This document shows, one piece after another, positions 592 to 10,013 of a stretch of 51,277 nucleotides of DNA. The translations under genes and the position numbers were made by a program. Every line of letters begins with the position of its first letter. Positions within the stretch are counted from its first letter, which is position 1. The notes under the pieces are model-generated. The model did not search any database. It saw only the letters and a list, made by a program, of their open reading frames with translations, and was not told where the DNA came from. Where the stretch lies: IMG/VR virus record IMGVR_UViG_2851955134_000001; one strand, written 5' to 3'. This DNA is from a virus (lineage: Duplodnaviria; Heunggongvirae; Uroviricota; Caudoviricetes).

Positions 592-2325
592 TCACAGTAT
601 TCTCTGAAACAGGCCCCAAATCGTCCCACTGATATTATTCACCGCCATGTTAGTTGTGCATAACATCCATGTACCAAGCATAGGATTGCCAAATAAAAAG
701 CGGATATCTGTAAGTTTATCCGATGACGACGACACAATAACGGCCTGTCTGATACGATACCCGGGTATTTGACGGGTATTTGTTATCTCATGATTTCGTT
801 CTATGATCCCCAGAACATAAGACCCCACGGAATAAACACTTCCGACGCTCGCTGGCCGCCCCGCTTCTCCTCTTGGCCCCTGTGGACCTGCCGGACCGCG
901 TTCACCTGTATACCCTCTTGGCCCCTGTAGACCTGCCGGGCCGCGTGCTCCTGTATCCCCCTTTAGTCCCTGTGGACCTGCCGGGCCGCGTTCACCTGTT
1001 TCACCTTTTGGTCCCTGTGGACCTGCCGGGCCACGTTCACCTGTATCGCCCTTTGGTCCCTGTGGACCTGTCGGGCCACGTGCTCCTGTTTCACCTTTTG
1101 GTCCCTGTGGACCTGCCGGGCCGCGTGCTCCTGTATCCCCCTTTAGTCCCTGTGGACCTGCCGGGCCGCGTGCTCCTGTATCCCCCTTTAGTCCCTGTGG
1201 ACCTGCCGGACCGCGTTCACCTGTATCCCCCTTTAGTCCCTGTGGACCTGCCGGGCCACGTTCACCTGTATCGCCCTTTGGTCCCTGTGGACCTGCCGGG
1301 CCACGTTCACCTGTATCGCCCTTTGGTCCCTGTGGACCTGTCGGGCCACGTTCACCTGTTTCACCTTTTGGTCCCTGTGGACCTGCCGGGCCGCGTTCAC
1401 CTGTTTCACCTTTTGGTCCCTGTGGACCTCCCGGATCTCCTTTATCCCCCTTAGGGCCTTTTTCTCCTCGCTCACCCTTTTCTCCCTTCAGACCCTGAGG
1501 GCCTTCCGGACCACGTGCACCTGTTTCGCCCTTTGCTCCCTGTGGACCTGCCGGGCCGCGTTCACCTGTTTCACCTTTTGCTCCCTGTGGACCTTCCGGA
1601 CCACGTGCACCTGTTTCGCCTTTTGGTCCCTGTGGACCTGCCGGGCCGCGTTCACCTGTATCGCCCTTTGGTCCCTGTGGACCTGCCGGACCGCGTTCAC
1701 CTGTTTCACCTTTTGGTCCCTGTGGACCTGCCGGGCCGCGTTCACCTGTATCGCCCTTTGGTCCCTGTGGACCTGCCGGACCGCGTTCACCTGTTTCACC
1801 TTTTGGTCCCTGTGGACCTGCCGGGCCACGTGCTCCTGTTTCACCTTTTGGCCCCTGTGGCCCGGTAATGCCTCTTTCACCACGAGCGCCGGTATCCCCT
1901 TTCTCTCCTCGTGGTCCCCGGGCAGATGCTGCTCGCTTCCGGGCTTCCTCCGCCTCAGATGCCGCGGACTCTGCTCTGTGCAGTATGGACTGCACCACAG
2001 CCTCCAGCTCTGACAACGCCTTCGGATAATAAGCAGCATCTTCCATCTCCATCAGAAATTTATTCAGTGTTCCCGGTGAAGAATCCTCCCTGACCACGAT
2101 ATCTCCCACATACGAAGGACGGTAACCTTCTGTATTGAGTGTCACCCTGTATATTCCTGGCTCCACATCCATACTGTAACTCCCCGTCTCTTCCGGCATG
2201 CCATAAGCCACTGTCGTGGCGATGACTGTCTCGCTGGTTCTCTTCGCTTTCAGCTCAATAATGCATCCCGGTACCGGTTTTCCGGTTCCGTCCCTGAGCA
2301 CGCCTGAAATTTTTACAGCCGCCAT
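592..2325 (-). CDS. side tail fibre protein (Stf-like) with long collagen-like Gly-X-Y repeat region
   Basis: N-terminus [18 protein letters not shown] resembles recalled lambda Stf N-terminus; about 340 aa of GPxGPxGxxGxRG repeats; ATG at 2325. Confidence 0.8.
865..1870. repeat. tandem ~45-bp coding repeats (collagen-like GxY units) inside stf
   Basis: Visible periodic reiteration of cctgtggacctgccgggccgcgttcacctgt... units; all six frames stay open across the array. Confidence 0.85.
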
Positions 2326-2458
2326 ACTCGCTCCACAAATAAAAATAATCCCGCAAAATTGCGGGCGTCGTCATTCATTTACAATCGGGTGTTTTTATGA
2401 TTACTGTAACCGGCTCATTTAAACCGTCTGGTCTGTTTCCTCCGGCTCTACAAAAATA

Positions 2459-3136
2459 ATGTCCATCATTTTTAATGGACACTATCGTATGAAACACCGG
2501 ACCTGGATCACTGAAGCTTTACGTCTTCACTTTGAAGAACATTTACCCCGGGTTGTGGCCGGGCGTCGCCTGGGTGTACCAAAATCAACAGTTTGCAGTA
2601 TGTTCGTGCGCTTTCGGAGAGCTGGCCTTTCGTGGCCTTTGCCCGCAGGCATGTCGGAGCAGGAACTTGATGCCTGCCTTTACGGACAATTTTCCACGGT
2701 ACCAGTCGTACGTCCTGAAAGCACCGTTATATCCGAAGCCCCCGTGGTAAAAAAACGTCCCCGGCGGCCCAACTTCCCTTATGAGTTTAAAATCGCCTTA
2801 GTGGAACAGTCACTGCAGCCCGGAGCCTGTGTGGCGCAGATCGCCCGGGAAAACGGAATCAACGATAACCTGCTCTTCAACTGGCGCCATCAATACCGGA
2901 AAGGTGGCCTGCTGCCTTCCGGAAAAAATATGCCGGCACTGCTTCCCGTGACGTTAACGCCGGAGCCGGATAATAAAATCCCGGCTCCGGCACAGGAACC
3001 AGAGCAGATAAATACACCGTCCGACAGTCTGTGTTGTGAGCTGGTTCTGCCGGCCGGAACTCTCAGGCTTAAAGGTAAACTGACGCCGGCGTTATTACAG
3101 ACACTTATCCGCGAAATAAAAGGGAGCAGCCACTGA
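2459..3136 (+). CDS. IS66-family accessory protein TnpA (start may be the internal ATG at 2489)
   Basis: First ORF of the IS; stop overlaps the tnpB start (ATGA at 3136). Confidence 0.65.
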   Translation: MSIIFNGHYRMKHRTWITEALRLHFEEHLPRVVAGRRLGVPKSTVCSMFVRFRRAGLSWPLPAGMSEQELDACLYGQFSTVPVVRPESTVISEAPVVKKRPRRPNFPYEFKIALVEQSLQPGACVAQIARENGINDNLLFNWRHQYRKGGLLPSGKNMPALLPVTLTPEPDNKIPAPAQEPEQINTPSDSLCCELVLPAGTLRLKGKLTPALLQTLIREIKGSSH

Positions 3137-3483
3137 TGATATCTCTCCCTGCAGGTTCGCGTATCTGGCTGGTTGCCGGTATCACCGATATGCGAAATGG
3201 CTTTAACGGCCTGGCCTCAAAAGTTCAGAACGTCCTGAAGGATGACCCGTTCTCCGGACACCTGTTCATCTTCCGCGGACGCCGGGGTGACCAGATAAAA
3301 GTGTTGTGGGCTGACAGTGACGGACTGTGCCTCTTCACCAAACGCCTGGAGCGGGGCCGCTTCGTCTGGCCGGTTACCCGTGACGGCAAGGTGCACCTTA
3401 CTCCGGCTCAGTTATCTATGCTTCTTGAAGGTATCAACTGGAAGCACCCGAAACGAACGGAACGCGCTGGCATTCGCATATAA
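3136..3483 (+). CDS. IS66-family TnpB (Orf2)
   Basis: 115 aa with sequence MISLPAGSRIWLVAGITDMRNGFNGL... characteristic of IS66 Orf2, as recalled. Confidence 0.85.
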   Translation: MISLPAGSRIWLVAGITDMRNGFNGLASKVQNVLKDDPFSGHLFIFRGRRGDQIKVLWADSDGLCLFTKRLERGRFVWPVTRDGKVHLTPAQLSMLLEGINWKHPKRTERAGIRI

Positions 3484-3502
3484 CCCGTTGTAAAGTGAGG
3501 AT

Positions 3503-5074
3503 ATGGACACCTCACTTGCTCATGAGAATGCCCGCCTGCGGGCACTGTTGCAGACGCAACAGGACACCATCCGCCAGATGGCGAAATACAACCGCCTGCT
3601 CTCACAGCGGGTGGCGGCTTATGCTTCCGAAATCAACCGGCTGAAGGCGCTGGTTGCGAAACTGCAACGTATGCAGTTCGGTAAAAGCTCAGAAAAACTT
3701 CGTGCAAAAACCGAACGGCAGATACAGGAAGCACAGGAGCGAATCAGCGCACTTCAGGAAGAAATGGCGGAAACGCTGGGTGAGCAATATGACCCGGTAC
3801 TGCCATCCGCCCTGCGCCAGTCTTCAGCCCGTAAACCGTTACCGGCCTCACTTCCCCGTGAAACCCGGGTTATCCGGCCGGAAGAGGAATGCTGTCCTGC
3901 CTGTGGTGGTGAACTCAGTTCTCTGGGATGTGATGTGTCAGAGCAACTGGAGCTTATCAGCAGCGCCTTTAAGGTTATCGAAACACAACGTCCGAAACTG
4001 GCCTGTTGCCGGTGCGACCATATCGTGCAGGCACCGGTGCCTTCAAAACCCATTGCACGCAGTTATGCCGGAGCGGGGCTCCTGGCCCATGTCGTCACCG
4101 GAAAATATGCAGACCATCTGCCGTTATACCGCCAGTCAGAGATATACCGCCGTCAGGGTGTGGAGCTGAGCCGTGCCACACTGGGGCGCTGGACTGGTGC
4201 CGTTGCTGAACTACTGGAGCCGCTGTATGACGTCCTGCGCCAGTATGTGCTGATGCCCGGTAAAGTCCATGCTGATGATATCCCCGTCCCGGTCCAGGAG
4301 CCGGGCAGCGGTAAAACCCGGACAGCCCGGCTGTGGGTCTACGTCCGTGATGACCGTAACGCCGGTTCACAGATGCCCCCGGCGGTCTGGTTCGCGTACA
4401 GTCCGGACCGGAAAGGTATCCATCCACAAAATCACCTGGCCGGTTACAGCGGTGTGCTTCAGGCCGATGCTTACGGTGGTTACCGGGCGTTATACGAATC
4501 CGGCAGAATAACGGAAGCCGCGTGTATGGCTCATGCCCGGAGAAAAATCCACGATGTGCATGCAAGAGCGCCCACCGACATCACCACGGAAGCCCTGCAG
4601 CGTATCGGTGAACTGTATGCCATCGAGGCAGAGGTCCGGGGCTGTTCAGCAGAACAGCGTCTGGCGGCAAGAAAAACCAGAGCCGCGCCACTGATGCAGT
4701 CACTGTATGACTGGATACAGCAACAGATGAAAACACTGTCGCGTCACTCAGATACGGCAAAAGCGTTCGCATACCTGCTGAAACAGTGGGATGCACTGAA
4801 CGTGTACTGCAGTAATGGCTGGGTGGAAATCGACAACAACATCGCAGAGAACGCCTTACGGGGAGTGGCCGTAGGCCGGAAAAACTGGCTCTTCGCGGGT
4901 TCCGACAGCGGTGGCGAACATGCGGCGGTGTTGTACTCGCTGATCGGCACATGCCGTCTGAACAATGTGGAGCCAGAAAAATGGCTGCGTTACGTTATTG
5001 AGCATATTCAGGACTGGCCGGCAAACCGGGTACGCGATCTGTTGCCCTGGAAAGTTGATCTGAGCTCTCAGTAA
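3503..5074 (+). CDS. IS66-family transposase (TnpC)
   Basis: 523 aa; N-terminal leucine-zipper-like region, CxxC zinc motif and C-terminal region typical of IS66 transposases. Confidence 0.9.
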
Positions 5075-5107
5075 ATATCAATACGGTTCTGACGAGCCGC
5101 TTACTGA

Positions 5108-5353
5108 TTACTTCACGCACGAAACTTTCGTAAACATATCTTCACTCACCCACTGACCATAAAATCTCGGAGCTGATACTTTATACACAGTGCCGCTTTT
5201 CGTTTCTATTTTCCCTGTAAGATCTACCGTATAAGCTCGCTGTAAAACCCCGGGACTCAGCACACCGGTGCACCGGACTCTCTCCGTAACGGAACTGTAC
5301 CCCGCGCAACCTGATACAAGAAACAGCAAAAAAGTGCAGACGATTATTTTCAT
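5108..5353 (-). CDS. small lipoprotein downstream of tail genes; possibly Cor-like superinfection exclusion protein
   Basis: Signal peptide with lipobox LVSGC; 81 aa; the position after the J/tail region matches where cor sits in phi80/HK022-type phages. Confidence 0.45.
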   Translation of the reverse strand: MKIIVCTFLLFLVSGCAGYSSVTERVRCTGVLSPGVLQRAYTVDLTGKIETKSGTVYKVSAPRFYGQWVSEDMFTKVSCVK

Positions 5354-5374
5354 TACATGCCCTCAACATAACTA

Positions 5375-6037
5375 TCAGTACGCATCATAAATTTCTGCAT
5401 TTATGTAATAACAGAGGTTATTAACAACACCTGAATTATCATTGGGCGCCGCTACGTTATCTTCAGCAAAAGTTGACTGACGCCATAACTGTGAGTTTCT
5501 GGCATTAAAACTGGCGGTATACCAGTAATAACTCTCCCCTTCCTGAACTGTCGTCCACTGGGTACACCCCGGCATTACGGCCACATCATGTCCCACACTG
5601 ATCGGTACATCCTTTTCCCATATTCGCGTCATTTTTACTTCCAGTGGCAGCATTTCCGTGTTCCAGACCACCCTGCCATGACTGTCGCACAACTGTATTC
5701 CCCATTGCGGCCATACATTCACCATGTTGGCAAAAACATAAACAACATATGTGCTGTCCTGTTCCATGCCCGGCTCCTGCCCTGTACCAGCGCTGAAAAT
5801 GTCATACTGCCAGGTACCGTTAAGCTGAACCATTTCACCATGGAAGGACTGATTACCGCTTATCTGTTTAATAAAAATCACGCAACGATAATTCGTCGGC
5901 ACCCCGGTGTCGATAAACTGCATCACCGCATCACGCGCACTCAGTGTGAAATGAAAACGGCGCACAAGGTTCAGTGGCGGCGCAACAGGTGATATCCATT
6001 CTCTCCCCCGCTCATCAGTTAATTTAAGTGCAAACAT
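5375..6037 (-). CDS. hypothetical phage protein in the tail tip region
   Basis: ATG at 6037 with AAGGGGGA RBS; 220 aa; no recognisable motif. Confidence 0.5.
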   Translation of the reverse strand: MFALKLTDERGREWISPVAPPLNLVRRFHFTLSARDAVMQFIDTGVPTNYRCVIFIKQISGNQSFHGEMVQLNGTWQYDIFSAGTGQEPGMEQDSTYVVYVFANMVNVWPQWGIQLCDSHGRVVWNTEMLPLEVKMTRIWEKDVPISVGHDVAVMPGCTQWTTVQEGESYYWYTASFNARNSQLWRQSTFAEDNVAAPNDNSGVVNNLCYYINAEIYDAY

Positions 6038-6297
6038 CAGATCCCCCTTATCATGACCAGCACGGGTCTTAGCCAGCTTGTGTTGGCATAGTGCACTGTC
6101 CAGCCGGATACACTGGCACTGGTATGACTTCCCTGACCGTTAATCAGAATGGCCGGTGAACAGACTTCCAGACGCCAGCCCTGCAAAGGAGTATAAGAAC
6201 GCTGCCCCGTCCCTTCAGTGATCACATCCAGCACCCCTGTTGGGTTTATTTCATGTGTCACAAGGCGCCCTTTGCGCCATACCCGGACTCCGAACAT
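6037..6297 (-). CDS. hypothetical small protein translationally coupled to J
   Basis: ATG overlaps the J stop (TAATG); GGGGAG RBS inside the J 3' end. Confidence 0.4.
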   Translation of the reverse strand: MFGVRVWRKGRLVTHEINPTGVLDVITEGTGQRSYTPLQGWRLEVCSPAILINGQGSHTSASVSGWTVHYANTSWLRPVLVMIRGI

Positions 6298-9200
6298 TAC
6301 AGTCTCCCCAGTCGTACTCTTAACACATTGTTATCGTCATATACGTCGATTCGCTCGCCATTGAAAAACAGGCGGCCTGCGCCGGGCCTTCCTGAGTTAA
6401 TTTCAAGGCTGCCGTTTCTTGATAAACGCCACCCCGGACTACCGGAATGAAAATTATCTGACCGGATATCTCCCGTCACTCTGGCAAAATCCACGGTCAG
6501 TTTTTTCATGAAAACATCATTCATGAACAGCTGATCACCCTGAGCCACAAACAAAGGTGTTGTATTGCCATTTTCCGGGTTAATCATCGCAATACGATCT
6601 GCCTGCATCAGGATCTGACTCTGAATTCCGTCAGACGTATTTTCGATTCCGGCACCAATACCTGCAATATAGAGACGTCCATCCCGTGTCTGCTGCAGCT
6701 TCACAGCCCACATGCTGTTCAGGTTCCGGCGCGTGTCCTCCTGAACTTTCTGTATCTGCTCAATGCTGGCATTCCAGGATCCCAGTTTTTTATCCGTGCT
6801 CTGTGTGATCTGACTTCCCTTATCATCAACATACTGTCTGATCTGCGCTATCTGTCGGCTGTTCTCCTCCGTGCTCCTGCTTACTGTCTGCCGGATTTCG
6901 CTGCCCATCCTGTCAACTTTTCTGTCAACTTCCGCAATGGCCATTGACTGTTCAGCGCTCTTTTTCGCCACAACAGTACTTATTTGCGCACTTTTATCAT
7001 CAACATACTGCCTGACCTGCGCTATCTGTCGGCTGTTCTCCTCCGTGCTCCTGCTTACTGTCTGCCGGATTTCACTGCTCACGCTGTCAACTTTCCTGTC
7101 GACTTTCGCAATGGCCAGCGACTGTTCACCGCTCTTTTTCGCCACAACAGTACTTATTTGCGCACTTTTATCATCAACATACTGCCTGACCTGCGCTATC
7201 TGTCGGCTGTTCTCCTCCGTGCTCCTGCTTACTGTCTGCCGGATTTCACTGCTCACGCTGTCAACTTTCCTGTCGACTTTCGCAATGGCCAGCGACTGTT
7301 CACCGCTCTTTTTCGCCACCAGTTCCGTTATGCTGTTTTCAGACGCCGTGATTTTTTTCGTCACCTCTGCGATATCACGCTCCGCACGCTGCCTCACATC
7401 TTTCTCCAACTGCGTCATTTCGCGGTTAATCGCATTCTCCAGCTGCGTCATTTCGCGGTTAATCGCATTCTCCAGTTGCTCAACTTCAGTGCGCCGTGCA
7501 GAGGCATCAATGCGTTCATTGATCTCCCGTCCCAGATGCGTTTTATTTATCGCCCCCCTGAAAAAATTAAGGTAACCGGCAGGATCATTACTCGCCCGAC
7601 CGACTGCCTCCACGAATGCCGATTTACCGACAGTGTTAACACTGCGGATATAAAAGTAATAATCATGGCCAGGCTTAATATTCTGGCCGGAGACAAGCCA
7701 CTGAGTTCCGGTACCAAGATAACGGGCTGTGGTTTCAACCTGCCTGATATCGGTAATCCGCTTTTCCGAAAACCAGAACTCAAACTGCACCGTCGGATCA
7801 TAAACGGCAAGATGCGGCGTGGCGGTTATCTGAAAATAGCCCGGCGTCAGCTCAATCCGCGACGGCGCTGCCGGTGCGGCAATCCGGAACGATACCGACG
7901 CCGGGTCTCCCTGCTGCCCCCGGGCATTTACTGCCCGGACTGTCAGCCTGTAGTTCCCCGGCGCCAGCTGCCTGAAGCGGTATGTGGTTTCCGTCGTCCG
8001 GGCCGTGCTGACCAGCCGCTCACTGCCGTCATCCGCTGCCACGGTCAGGCGAAGCATGAAACTCACGCCTTTCACCACCTTCGGCGTGTCCCAGCGGGCC
8101 AGTACCTGATACTCCCCGCTGTCTGCGGTGACTTCGACAGTCAGGTGCTGCACTGCTGGCGGCGTGACACCATTCACCGTGCCGCTCTGGTCACCGTCAA
8201 AGTGTGCCCCGTTATCCACGATGCCCTCTTTTTCCGGTACATGCTGCACGGCAGTGATGGCATACGTGCCGTCGTCGTTCTCACGGATACTCACGCAGCG
8301 GAACAGGCGCTGGCGCAGCGTCGGCAGCTTCAGCCCCCACACGCTGTACTCGGCAACGCCGTCAGGAACCCGGCTCACTTTTACCTTCACGCCGTCGGTG
8401 ACGGACTGAACCTCCACGCTGACCGGATTGCCACTTCCGTCAACCAGGCTTATCAGCGTGGTACCGGAGGATGGCAGCGTGATTTCACGGTCGAGCGTCA
8501 GCGTCCGGGTCTGGCTGTTCACCGCCAGCACACGACCACCGGTGCTGATACCGGCATAGTCATCATCACAGATTTCAATGACATCGCCCGGTACATGGCG
8601 AAGCCCTTCAGCACCCACGCTGAAATCCACGGTCTGCGTCTCCAGCAGTTCTGTTTTAATCAGCCACAGCCCGGCGCGGTGTGCCTGCCCCCGGCTGGTA
8701 CAGCCAAAGGCATCCATCTTCGTGACGTTACGACCGTAACGGGCAATGGCCTGCGTATCTTCAACAAGCTCTGTCGCCGTCTCCTGGCCGTTATCCGGGT
8801 CACTCCAGTTCACCTCAACGGCATTATGGCGGTCCTTCAGGGCGCTGAAGCTGTAGCGGAACGGCGCGCCATCATCCGGCATCACCACATTACTGCGGTT
8901 ATAGGTCCACACCTTATCCGACGGTCGGTCCTGCACGAACGTCAGCGTCTGCCCGTTCCATACCGGCATACAGCGCATCGCCGAGCAGAAATCACTGAGC
9001 ACATCCCACGCCTTACGCTGTGTGGTCAGCCAGGCATTACAGGTGATGCGCGGCTCCGTGCCGCCAAAGCCGTCCGGCACTGACTGGTCGCAGTACTGGC
9101 CGATGACATACAGCGCCCATTTATCCACATCCGCTGCGCCAACACGTTTCCCCATGCCGTAGCGCGGATGGGTCAGCATATCCCACAGACACCAGGCCGG

Positions 9201-10013
9201 GTTGTTGCTGTATGCCGGTTTAAACGTTCCGTCCCAGATACCGCTGTATTGCCGCGTCTGCGGGTTATAGTTCGACGGCACCTGCAGAATGCGCCCGCGC
9301 AGATGATAATTACGGCTCACCTGCTGGCTGCCGAACTGCTCCGAATCCACCTGCACACCGACCAGTGCCGTGTTCGGGTAGCACTGTTTCACATCGATAA
9401 TTTCGGTGTATGACGACCAGAGCGTTTTGTTCTGCAGCTGGTCTGTGGTGCTGTCCGGCGTCATCCTGCGCATCCGGATACTGAACGGGCGCGGCGGCAG
9501 GTTATCCACCACCACCGAAGCCAGATACTGCGAGGTGGTTTTTCCCTTAATGGTGATGTCTTTTTCCGTTAACCAGCGACCGTTACGCTGTATCTGAACC
9601 AGCAGGCGGACTTCCGACGGATTCCGGTCCCCCTTTGAGGTGGTTTCCACCAGTGCCTGCACACCGAAGGTCAGGCGCAGACGGTCGATGTTTGCCGATG
9701 TGATGGTCCGGGTAATCGGCGTGTCGTACTTCACTTCCGTACCCAGCACCGTCTCGGAGCCGGAGGATTCAAATCCCTCCGGCGGCGTCTGCTCCTGCTC
9801 ACCGGCCCGGAATACCACCGTGACGCCGGATATATTGGTATTCCCCTCACTGTCCAGCACCGGCGTACCGTTCAGCAGCACGCTTTTTAATCCATCCACC
9901 GGTCCTTGTATCGGCCCTTCGCTGATGACATCGATCACACTCAGCAACTGCGTGGACTTCAGGTTGTCCTTCGCTTCGCGCGGGGTATGCCCCTTACTGC
10001 TGCCTTTACCCAT
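6297..10013 (-). CDS. J: tail tip / host specificity protein J with divergent C-terminal region
   Basis: First ~1000 aa closely match recalled lambda gpJ ([24 protein letters not shown]...); C-terminal part contains a coiled-coil repeat insertion and a short divergent end. Confidence 0.9.
6795..7320. repeat. three tandem ~174/177-bp repeats inside J (58-aa coiled-coil units)
   Basis: gctatctgtcggctgttctcctccgtgctcctgcttactgtctgccggatttc recurs at 6847, 7021 and 7198; a shorter 30-bp duplication follows at 7421/7451. Confidence 0.85.

Follow-up and report, generated by a model that had tools for sequence, protein, structure and literature searches.

The question raised by this locus is what is encoded by a small open reading frame (ORF) lying just beyond the tail tip genes in the virus record IMGVR_UViG_2851955134_000001 (Duplodnaviria; Heunggongvirae; Uroviricota; Caudoviricetes), and, should it encode an exclusion lipoprotein of the Cor type, which receptor that lipoprotein would close to other phages. 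The whole stretch of DNA analysed, 51,277 nucleotides (nt) in length, is referred to here as the window. An original prediction had pointed to a Cor-type superinfection exclusion factor on the basis of size, lipobox and position, without giving a strand; the ORF is on the minus strand. The analysis described below indicates that the product is probably a receptor-blocking outer-membrane lipoprotein of the Cor/Llp class, and the gene is an ordinary kind of gene in a new and divergent version.

An 81-residue lipoprotein related to Cor

The translation of the ORF is MKIIVCTFLLFLVSGCAGYSSVTERVRCTGVLSPGVLQRAYTVDLTGKIETKSGTVYKVSAPRFYGQWVSEDMFTKVSCVK. Read directly, the leader (residues 1-15) carries Lys2 followed by a hydrophobic core and ends in the lipobox V13-S14-G15-C16, which fits the pattern [LVI][ASTVI][GAS]C, with cleavage placed between MKIIVCTFLLFLVSG and C16-A17. 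The +2 residue is Ala17 and not Asp. In E. coli, lipoproteins with a residue other than Asp at +2 undergo Lol-dependent sorting to the outer membrane, and sorting to the outer membrane is therefore predicted for this protein. The size of 81 amino acids (aa) and the lipobox on which the original prediction had relied were thus both borne out by the translation; Cor precursors are typically ~75-80 aa long, with mature proteins of ~60 aa.

Cor was the sole named family returned by two independent profile libraries. In PHROGs the best match was to the unnamed phrog_27799 (E 1.7e-8), accompanied by phrog_1119, 'Cor superinfection exclusion protein' (E 8.6e-7, residues 1-79), and in NCBIfam one family was matched, NF047972 lamb_exclu_cor, 'phage exclusion lipoprotein Cor' (E 9.5e-7, residues 2-80). 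Pfam gave no family for the lipoprotein and just sub-threshold noise for its partner genes, and PADLOC gave no match for the lipoprotein. Alignment to Cor proteins, which the original prediction had proposed as a check, was run by BLASTP and yielded full-length identities of 30% to HK022 Cor and 36% to the Cor of Erwinia phage Midgardsormr38, phi80 Cor falling within the same 30-36% range, with the FhuA-type Cors as a group at 28-36% identity (E 1e-8 to 6e-10). The Cor alignments were collinear, and C16, C28, F74 and C79 were invariant in alignments of 7, 12 and 63 sequences, while G30, V43, Y57 and W68 were invariant or nearly so in the 12- and 63-sequence Cor-family alignments; G15, together with C16, was invariant in the alignment with the Cors of HK022, phi80, N15, T1, Stx2-86 and Midgardsormr38. 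An intramolecular disulfide is a feature common to Cor and Llp (PMC9586334), and the C28-C79 pair probably forms this predicted family disulfide.

Because any lipoprotein shares a signal peptide, the mature domains were tested separately. When a profile built from the mature domains of 116 canonical Cors was used, the mature domain of the window protein scored 16.1 bits (E 0.0019, set of 5007), a score reached by none of 5000 shuffles of the mature domain, the best of which scored 12.6 bits. In addition, an hhalign comparison of the mature subfamily alignment with the mature canonical alignment gave P 8.8e-5 over the Cys-to-Cys region. As both mature-only tests hold, the homology to Cor detected by these profiles is real but distant. 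The Cors of T1 and HK022 are themselves only ~35% identical, and the divergence of the window protein therefore lies within the range of the family. An identification that had been positional thus gained backing at the family level from profile matches, alignments and synteny.

A co-evolving three-gene cassette downstream of J

Along the minus strand, the order of genes is J, an 86-aa ORF, a 220-aa ORF, the lipoprotein gene, an IS66-family insertion sequence (IS), a terminator-like hairpin, a side tail fibre gene and a DUF4376 gene (Table 1). The lipoprotein gene lies two small genes downstream of J, which confirmed the location after the tail tip genes given by the original prediction, and the layout is that of HK022, phi80 and N15, in which J is followed by an ORF of ~100 aa, an ORF of 212-225 aa, cor and a tail fibre gene. 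Midgardsormr38 is arranged alike, phi80 and N15 carry an annotated terminator directly after cor, and T1 has the same three cassette genes beside J. An 'extended cor cassette' was described in 2026 in the FhuA-dependent phages T1, HK022, N15, ES18 and phi80 (PMC13164509). Judged by gene order and alignment, the lipoprotein gene is the last of three genes that follow J and evolve together as a module, the same one as in FhuA-dependent phages.

The last 200 aa of the window J are 33-37% identical to J of HK022 and phi80 and 32% identical to J of T1, with the alignments running to the very end, and the C-terminal ending ...VLRV.(V/L)GRL is common to the window J and the J proteins of HK022 and phi80. 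The two cassette partners are much further removed. The 86-aa partner is weakly similar to the partners in HK022 (a 100-aa ORF), phi80 and the phage tiwna. The 220-aa partner is 23% identical to the 212-aa ORF of HK022 over its N-terminal 128 residues, and matched the FhuA-linked alleles overall at 21-25% identity over its N-terminal half only (E 1e-7 to 1e-4), being nearer to the allele carried by tiwna and Zar3M (E 1e-14). By eye, neither partner (5375-6297) shows a signal peptide or a hydrophobic or transmembrane segment. PGAP calls the 86-aa ORF as a shorter protein of 74 aa.

A homologue of the lipoprotein, P0009, is found in another E. coli element (locus L011), in which it is preceded by a Phage_Tail_Tip protein and by ORFs of 86 and 219 aa. 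Identities between the window and this element are 48% for the lipoprotein, 51% for the 220-aa partner and 66% for the 86-aa partner, and these parallel values mean that the three genes diverge together. The cassette linkage is retained among relatives (L011 and L010), with P0005 located directly after J and before ORFs of 108 and 227 aa. These comparisons show strong divergence from the FhuA-linked alleles in each of the three cassette genes. The gene after the 48%-identical lipoprotein in L011 (7505-7645) is a 46-aa ORF of the Hok/Gef toxin family, and a giant protein with LPD and MuF domains on the same contig points to an element resembling a phage-plasmid and not to a lambdoid prophage.

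Distribution of the subfamily

A word-indexed protein search recovered near-identical copies only. A full HMMER scan covering 1.84 billion cluster representatives yielded five clusters at E <= 0.001, and the subfamily is therefore small; a profile search gave ten clusters, and a broader profile gave 263 clusters of the Cor family, most of which bear the name 'phage exclusion lipoprotein Cor'. More distant members of the subfamily match lipoproteins of tiwna (Warwickvirus) and Zar3M (Dhillonvirus). When the lipoprotein was searched by tblastn against 50,697 phage records, a single phage was matched (in 2 records), Erwinia phage Midgardsormr38, the match being annotated as Cor, and a search of 72,556 plasmids with the lipoprotein gave no match. 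In a tblastn search with the 220-aa partner, identity to phage isolates did not exceed 26%, and the receptor is thus not transferable by homology. By these searches, no sequenced phage isolate carries this allele of the cassette.

The ORF is a genuine gene

The exact protein occurs on 777 public contigs and has a UniProt entry, labelled just 'Uncharacterised protein' or 'Lipoprotein'. Of 5,426 complete E. coli genomes, 9 carry the 246-nt gene, among them NZ_CP128970.1 (TUM1886); it occupies 13 places in total, with up to three copies in one genome. In all nine of these carriers, which were the nine matches listed, RefSeq/PGAP has no feature annotated at the gene. This uniform blank is what would be expected if a chance ORF, and no gene, lay in the 339-base pair (bp) gap without RefSeq annotation, a view to which we give almost no weight. 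A ribosome-binding site is present, and the full ORF of 81 codons is preserved in a related E. coli genome free of the IS. P0009 of L011 has the same length of 81 aa, and its ungapped alignment with the window protein shows identities of 48% (aa) and 54% (nt). Over this pair, dN was 0.55 and dS 1.84, a ratio of ~0.3, and an overlapping alternative frame of 62 aa is broken by stop codons in the L011 relative. The family matches in PHROG and NCBIfam are likewise significant, and pipelines other than PGAP do call the gene. A chance ORF was thus rejected on conservation and on the dN/dS ratio, and the 81-aa ORF is a genuine gene.

Predicted structure

An AlphaFold2 model was built with the 63-sequence alignment and had a mean pLDDT of 79 (85-92 over residues 21-80) and a pTM of 0.58, with five strands forming a small barrel. 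Foldseek against the PDB gave no match at E <= 0.001, and the generic Tudor, SH3 and BAH matches that it returned were not used as functional evidence. Against BFVD, the highest-ranking matches were lipoproteins from T5-like phages of Proteus and Providencia (E 1.2e-3, TM 0.69), an exclusion protein of the Cor type from Dhillonvirus CEC_Kaz_2018 and a protein of DT571/2, and a phiR2-01 'receptor-blocking protein' appeared lower down. The model is compatible with the Cor/Llp fold, but too unspecific to serve as independent proof.

When the 63-sequence Cor-family profile was compared with PDB sequences, T5 Llp (8a60_B) was matched at E 0.73, through the signal peptide only. A match to insect prothoracicotropic hormone (5aoq_L, E 0.014), in which the Cys-to-Cys pattern and a WV motif were aligned, was dismissed as most likely a coincidence of cysteine spacing.

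Proposed mechanism

After export, the precursor would receive its lipid on Cys16 and be processed by signal peptidase II, and the lipid would anchor the product in the inner leaflet of the outer membrane. From this position the mature domain of 66 aa, a predicted five-stranded small barrel with a probable C28-C79 clamp, would bind the periplasmic face of a receptor, this being the outer-membrane protein used by the tail tip of the phage itself. By analogy with T5 Llp acting on FhuA, binding would lock the external loops of the receptor in a form that phages cannot use; in the solved FhuA-Llp complex, binding switches the external loops of FhuA to such a form (PMC9586334). As an outcome, phages sharing the receptor would be excluded, and progeny would not be wasted on cell debris.

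Family, target and time of expression

Several observations weigh against the assignment, at the level of the family, of the target and of the time of expression. In NF047972, the protein scored 28.7 bits. NCBIfam reserves the name Cor, and with it the function, for proteins that reach a curated equivalog cut-off of 31 bits, a value that the window protein falls slightly short of, whereas canonical Cors score 56-139 bits (HK022, N15 and Midgardsormr38 Cor, 130-139; Stx2-86 Cor-like protein, 71.5; T1 Cor, 56). Relatives within the subfamily ranged from no score to 33.5 bits. About half of the family score, moreover, comes from the signal peptide and lipobox. Because the curated cut-off was narrowly missed and exclusion, the defining phenotype, is a predicted one here, we refer to the protein as Cor-like, a member of a divergent sister subfamily (phrog_27799) and not a Cor equivalog. 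An unrelated role was also considered, in which the gene would encode a prophage lipoprotein such as a Bor-like moron acting in host fitness or virulence, an envelope-stress protein of the YgdI/YgdR type or an o-spanin. The Foldseek matches in the PDB include DUF903 (YgdI/YgdR-like) lipoproteins, the absence of a Pfam or PADLOC match would fit such a protein, and so would the bare database labels. The DUF903 matches, however, are non-significant (E 0.3), Cor is the only named sequence family found, and linkage to a J-proximal cassette is kept in four independent genome types, which would be unexpected for an unrelated moron. An o-spanin of the Rz1 type was rejected because the Rz and lysozyme genes lie 24 kb from the ORF. 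An unrelated role thus seems very improbable.

As to the target, FhuA would be the single most likely receptor, a choice that we make tentatively, because the gene order and the type of J are those of FhuA-dependent lambdoids and the nearest named relatives are FhuA-specific Cors. Another receptor is nearly as likely, because all three genes represent a distinct allele. In that case, a protein of the same family and mechanism would act on BtuB, FepA, YncD or another outer-membrane protein, matched to the divergent 86- and 220-aa tip proteins, and we regard this as doubtful, if within reach. Every gene of the cassette is far from its FhuA-linked allele (28-36% for Cor, 21-25% for the 220-aa protein and barely detectable for the 86-aa protein), the three genes co-vary as a set with L011, and the allele was found in no sequenced phage isolate, the best match to the 220-aa protein being 26%. 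If FhuA is assumed, two further facts are awkward: the 220-aa partner is nearer to the tiwna/Zar3M allele, and Warwickvirus isolates have been reported to be FhuA-independent (PMC10373560). In BASEL, alleles of the J-proximal locus track the terminal receptor, and the locus is treated as encoding receptor-binding proteins (PMC8594841); Cor-like proteins also occur in BtuB-using phages (PMC13164509). FhuA is favoured, in contrast, by the lipoprotein itself, which is nearer to FhuA-type Cors than to the lipoproteins of tiwna and Zar3M (E 0.06 and 5e-5), by the order J-small-mid-cor and the C-terminus of J, both of the FhuA-dependent lambdoid type, and by the fact that true FhuA-specific Cors differ from one another as much as HK022 Cor does from T1 Cor. 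On these comparisons, the family assignment is the more secure claim and blockage of FhuA the less secure one, because the cassette as a whole represents a distinct allele. The module might instead be an uncharacterised allele of the locus for receptor recognition and exclusion in siphophages, specific for an outer-membrane receptor other than FhuA, although we would not favour this. An attempt was also made to read a receptor off the C-terminus of J. SSU5 gave the best full-length match to the last 300 aa (35%), but no cassette follows SSU5 J, and PhiR49_2 has a lambda-type J followed by lom; both were uninformative.

With regard to the time of expression, a consensus promoter scan of positions 2200-6400 found 1 site against 3.6 expected, with none above chance 5' of the gene; the scan was crude, and weak or activator-dependent promoters would be missed. 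That single site was located ~530 nt upstream of the gene, inside the 220-aa ORF. Expression from the repressed prophage is thus unsupported, because no promoter-like site rises above chance and the gap to the preceding gene is 21 nt. The gene may be made only alongside the late tail genes, and not from a repressed prophage. T5 Llp and T1 Cor, both agents of lytic conversion, are likewise products of the lytic phase. A receptor blocker whose synthesis is confined to the late part of the lytic cycle would guard progeny from debris and confer no immunity to superinfection on the lysogen. The gene follows the preceding tail-module gene closely, with a ribosome-binding site of its own, whereas the cor gene of HK022, an annotated moron, has a 107-nt AT-rich upstream spacer. 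The crudeness of the scan and the presence of a terminator of its own after the gene, as in morons, speak on the other side, and we consider restriction to lytic growth unlikely, if not strikingly so. It would in any case be compatible with a receptor-blocking lipoprotein of the Cor/Llp class and would alter its timing only.

Other features of the window

The coordinates of the features are collected in Table 1. The remainder of the window is a lambdoid prophage. The IS is flanked by an 8-bp target duplication, TGATTACT, at 2398-2405 and 5104-5111, which overlaps the stop codon of the cor-like gene. The IS starts 4 nt beyond this stop and leaves the reading frame unchanged, and an ORF end created artificially by the IS was rejected, as the ORF is identical in uninterrupted genomes. 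In these genomes the hairpin lies 35 nt past the cor-like stop, and the IS has moved it 2.7 kb away from the gene, which is likewise separated from the side tail fibre gene. This IS is also present in a related genome, L002, together with an IS1414 that truncates a tail fibre copy.

Table 1. Features of the cor-like locus and of the surrounding window
Feature	Position	Strand	Basis or comment
Cor-like lipoprotein gene	5108..5353	minus	ATG-to-TAA ORF; precursor 81 aa, mature protein 66 aa (C16-K81)
Signal peptide (residues 1-15) and lipobox cysteine codon (C16, 5308..5306)	5306..5353	minus	Read off the translation
Shine-Dalgarno sequence GAGGG	5364..5360	minus	6 nt 5' of the cor-like ATG
220-aa cassette partner	5375..6037	minus	phrog_425 'membrane associated protein', E 3.3e-27; homologue of phi80 gp23 / N15 gp23
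86-aa cassette partner	6037..6297	minus	phrog_557 'outer membrane protein', E 2.8e-4; homologue of phi80 gp22 / N15 gp22
Tail tip protein J, 1238 aa, 'short' type	6297..10013	minus	RefSeq annotation gpJ; ends ...VLRVRLGRL as in HK022, phi80 and T1
IS66-family element, 2698 bp	2406..5103	plus	Compared with L001, in which the locus is uninterrupted; IS also annotated by RefSeq in L002
IS66 genes	tnpA 2459-3136, tnpB 3136-3483, tnpC 3503-5074		
Terminator-like hairpin CCCGCAATTTTGCGGG and T-run	2350..2365	minus	Pattern scan
Collagen-repeat side tail fibre gene	592..2325	minus	Pfam phage_tail_N and Collagen; RefSeq annotation
DUF4376 gene	1-576	minus	
Rz gene	29762-30238		PF03245
Lysozyme gene	30220-30753		

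Within J, a 174-nt tandem repeat (2.9 copies, 96% matches) at 6820-7319 encodes a repeated 58-aa coiled-coil-like segment, and a 33-nt repeat is found at 7402-7479. The length of J varies, with 1238 aa here and 1180 aa in L001. The side tail fibre has a collagen-like Gly-X-Y region, in which a 45-nt unit is repeated 22.4 times (array 869-1860), and its length differs among near-identical prophages (577 aa here; 457 and 543 aa in two RefSeq genomes).

Significance

Lipoproteins of the Cor/Llp type decide whether a phage can enter a lysogen and mark the receptor of the phage that encodes them, and spotting divergent members thus improves both prophage annotation and in-silico prediction of receptors. 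No database names this protein Cor, and RefSeq leaves the gene unannotated in every complete E. coli carrier. A distinct allele of the J-proximal cassette, without a counterpart in isolated phages, offers a practical handle on a new receptor specificity. Should the target be FhuA, the result would be merely a better annotation. If, on the other hand, the target were a different transporter, it would be the first time that a Cor-type exclusion factor from a lambdoid prophage had been shown to have such a target, and the locus would supply a receptor-binding protein together with its cognate blocker for a new specificity.

Comparison with known systems

Rtp45 of phage Rtp, which acts on LptDE, is likewise a small exclusion lipoprotein encoded next to a receptor-binding protein just after J (PMC8594841), but it belongs to another protein family with another receptor, and is set beside the window protein by concept only. 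T5 Llp, the lytic conversion lipoprotein (PDB 8A60 chain B, in complex with FhuA), has no significant sequence similarity to the window protein and is encoded beside pb5, and not in a J-gp22-gp23 cassette. Another allele of the three-gene module is found in tiwna (L016, 5001-6165) and Zar3M (L017, 5001-6157), with all of its genes annotated as hypothetical. Among the sequenced phages compared, this allele is the one most similar to the 220-aa protein of the window. Its genes, however, stand in the order lipoprotein (89 aa), 92 aa and 204 aa, convergent with J, and its lipoproteins are only 21-28% identical to that of the window.

The Cors of T1, of other Drexlerviridae and of Dhillonvirus belong to the same family as the window protein, with the three cassette genes beside J. 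In T1, cor lies on the strand opposite to its two partner genes, and T1 Cor still scores higher on the Cor model than the window protein (56 against 28.7 bits). The closest parallel is with the Cors of the lambdoid phages and N15 (HK022, phi80, N15 and mEp167), for which exclusion at FhuA has been demonstrated, according to cited papers (PMC13164509). These differ from the window protein in sharing only 28-34% identity with it, and its cassette partner genes are strongly diverged from theirs. In the alignment, the window protein carries two short barrel insertions relative to them, at about residue 27 and at residues 36-37, and its gene has an upstream spacer of 21 nt in place of the 107-112 nt or so found before cor in HK022, phi80 and N15. 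Nevertheless, the two share a precursor of similar length (77-78 aa, or 75-78 aa over the reference Cors, as compared with 81 aa), an SGC-type lipobox with a small +2 residue, two further cysteines, the C-terminal W-V-S...F...C motif, and a location as the third gene after J, ahead of a terminator and the side tail fibre gene.

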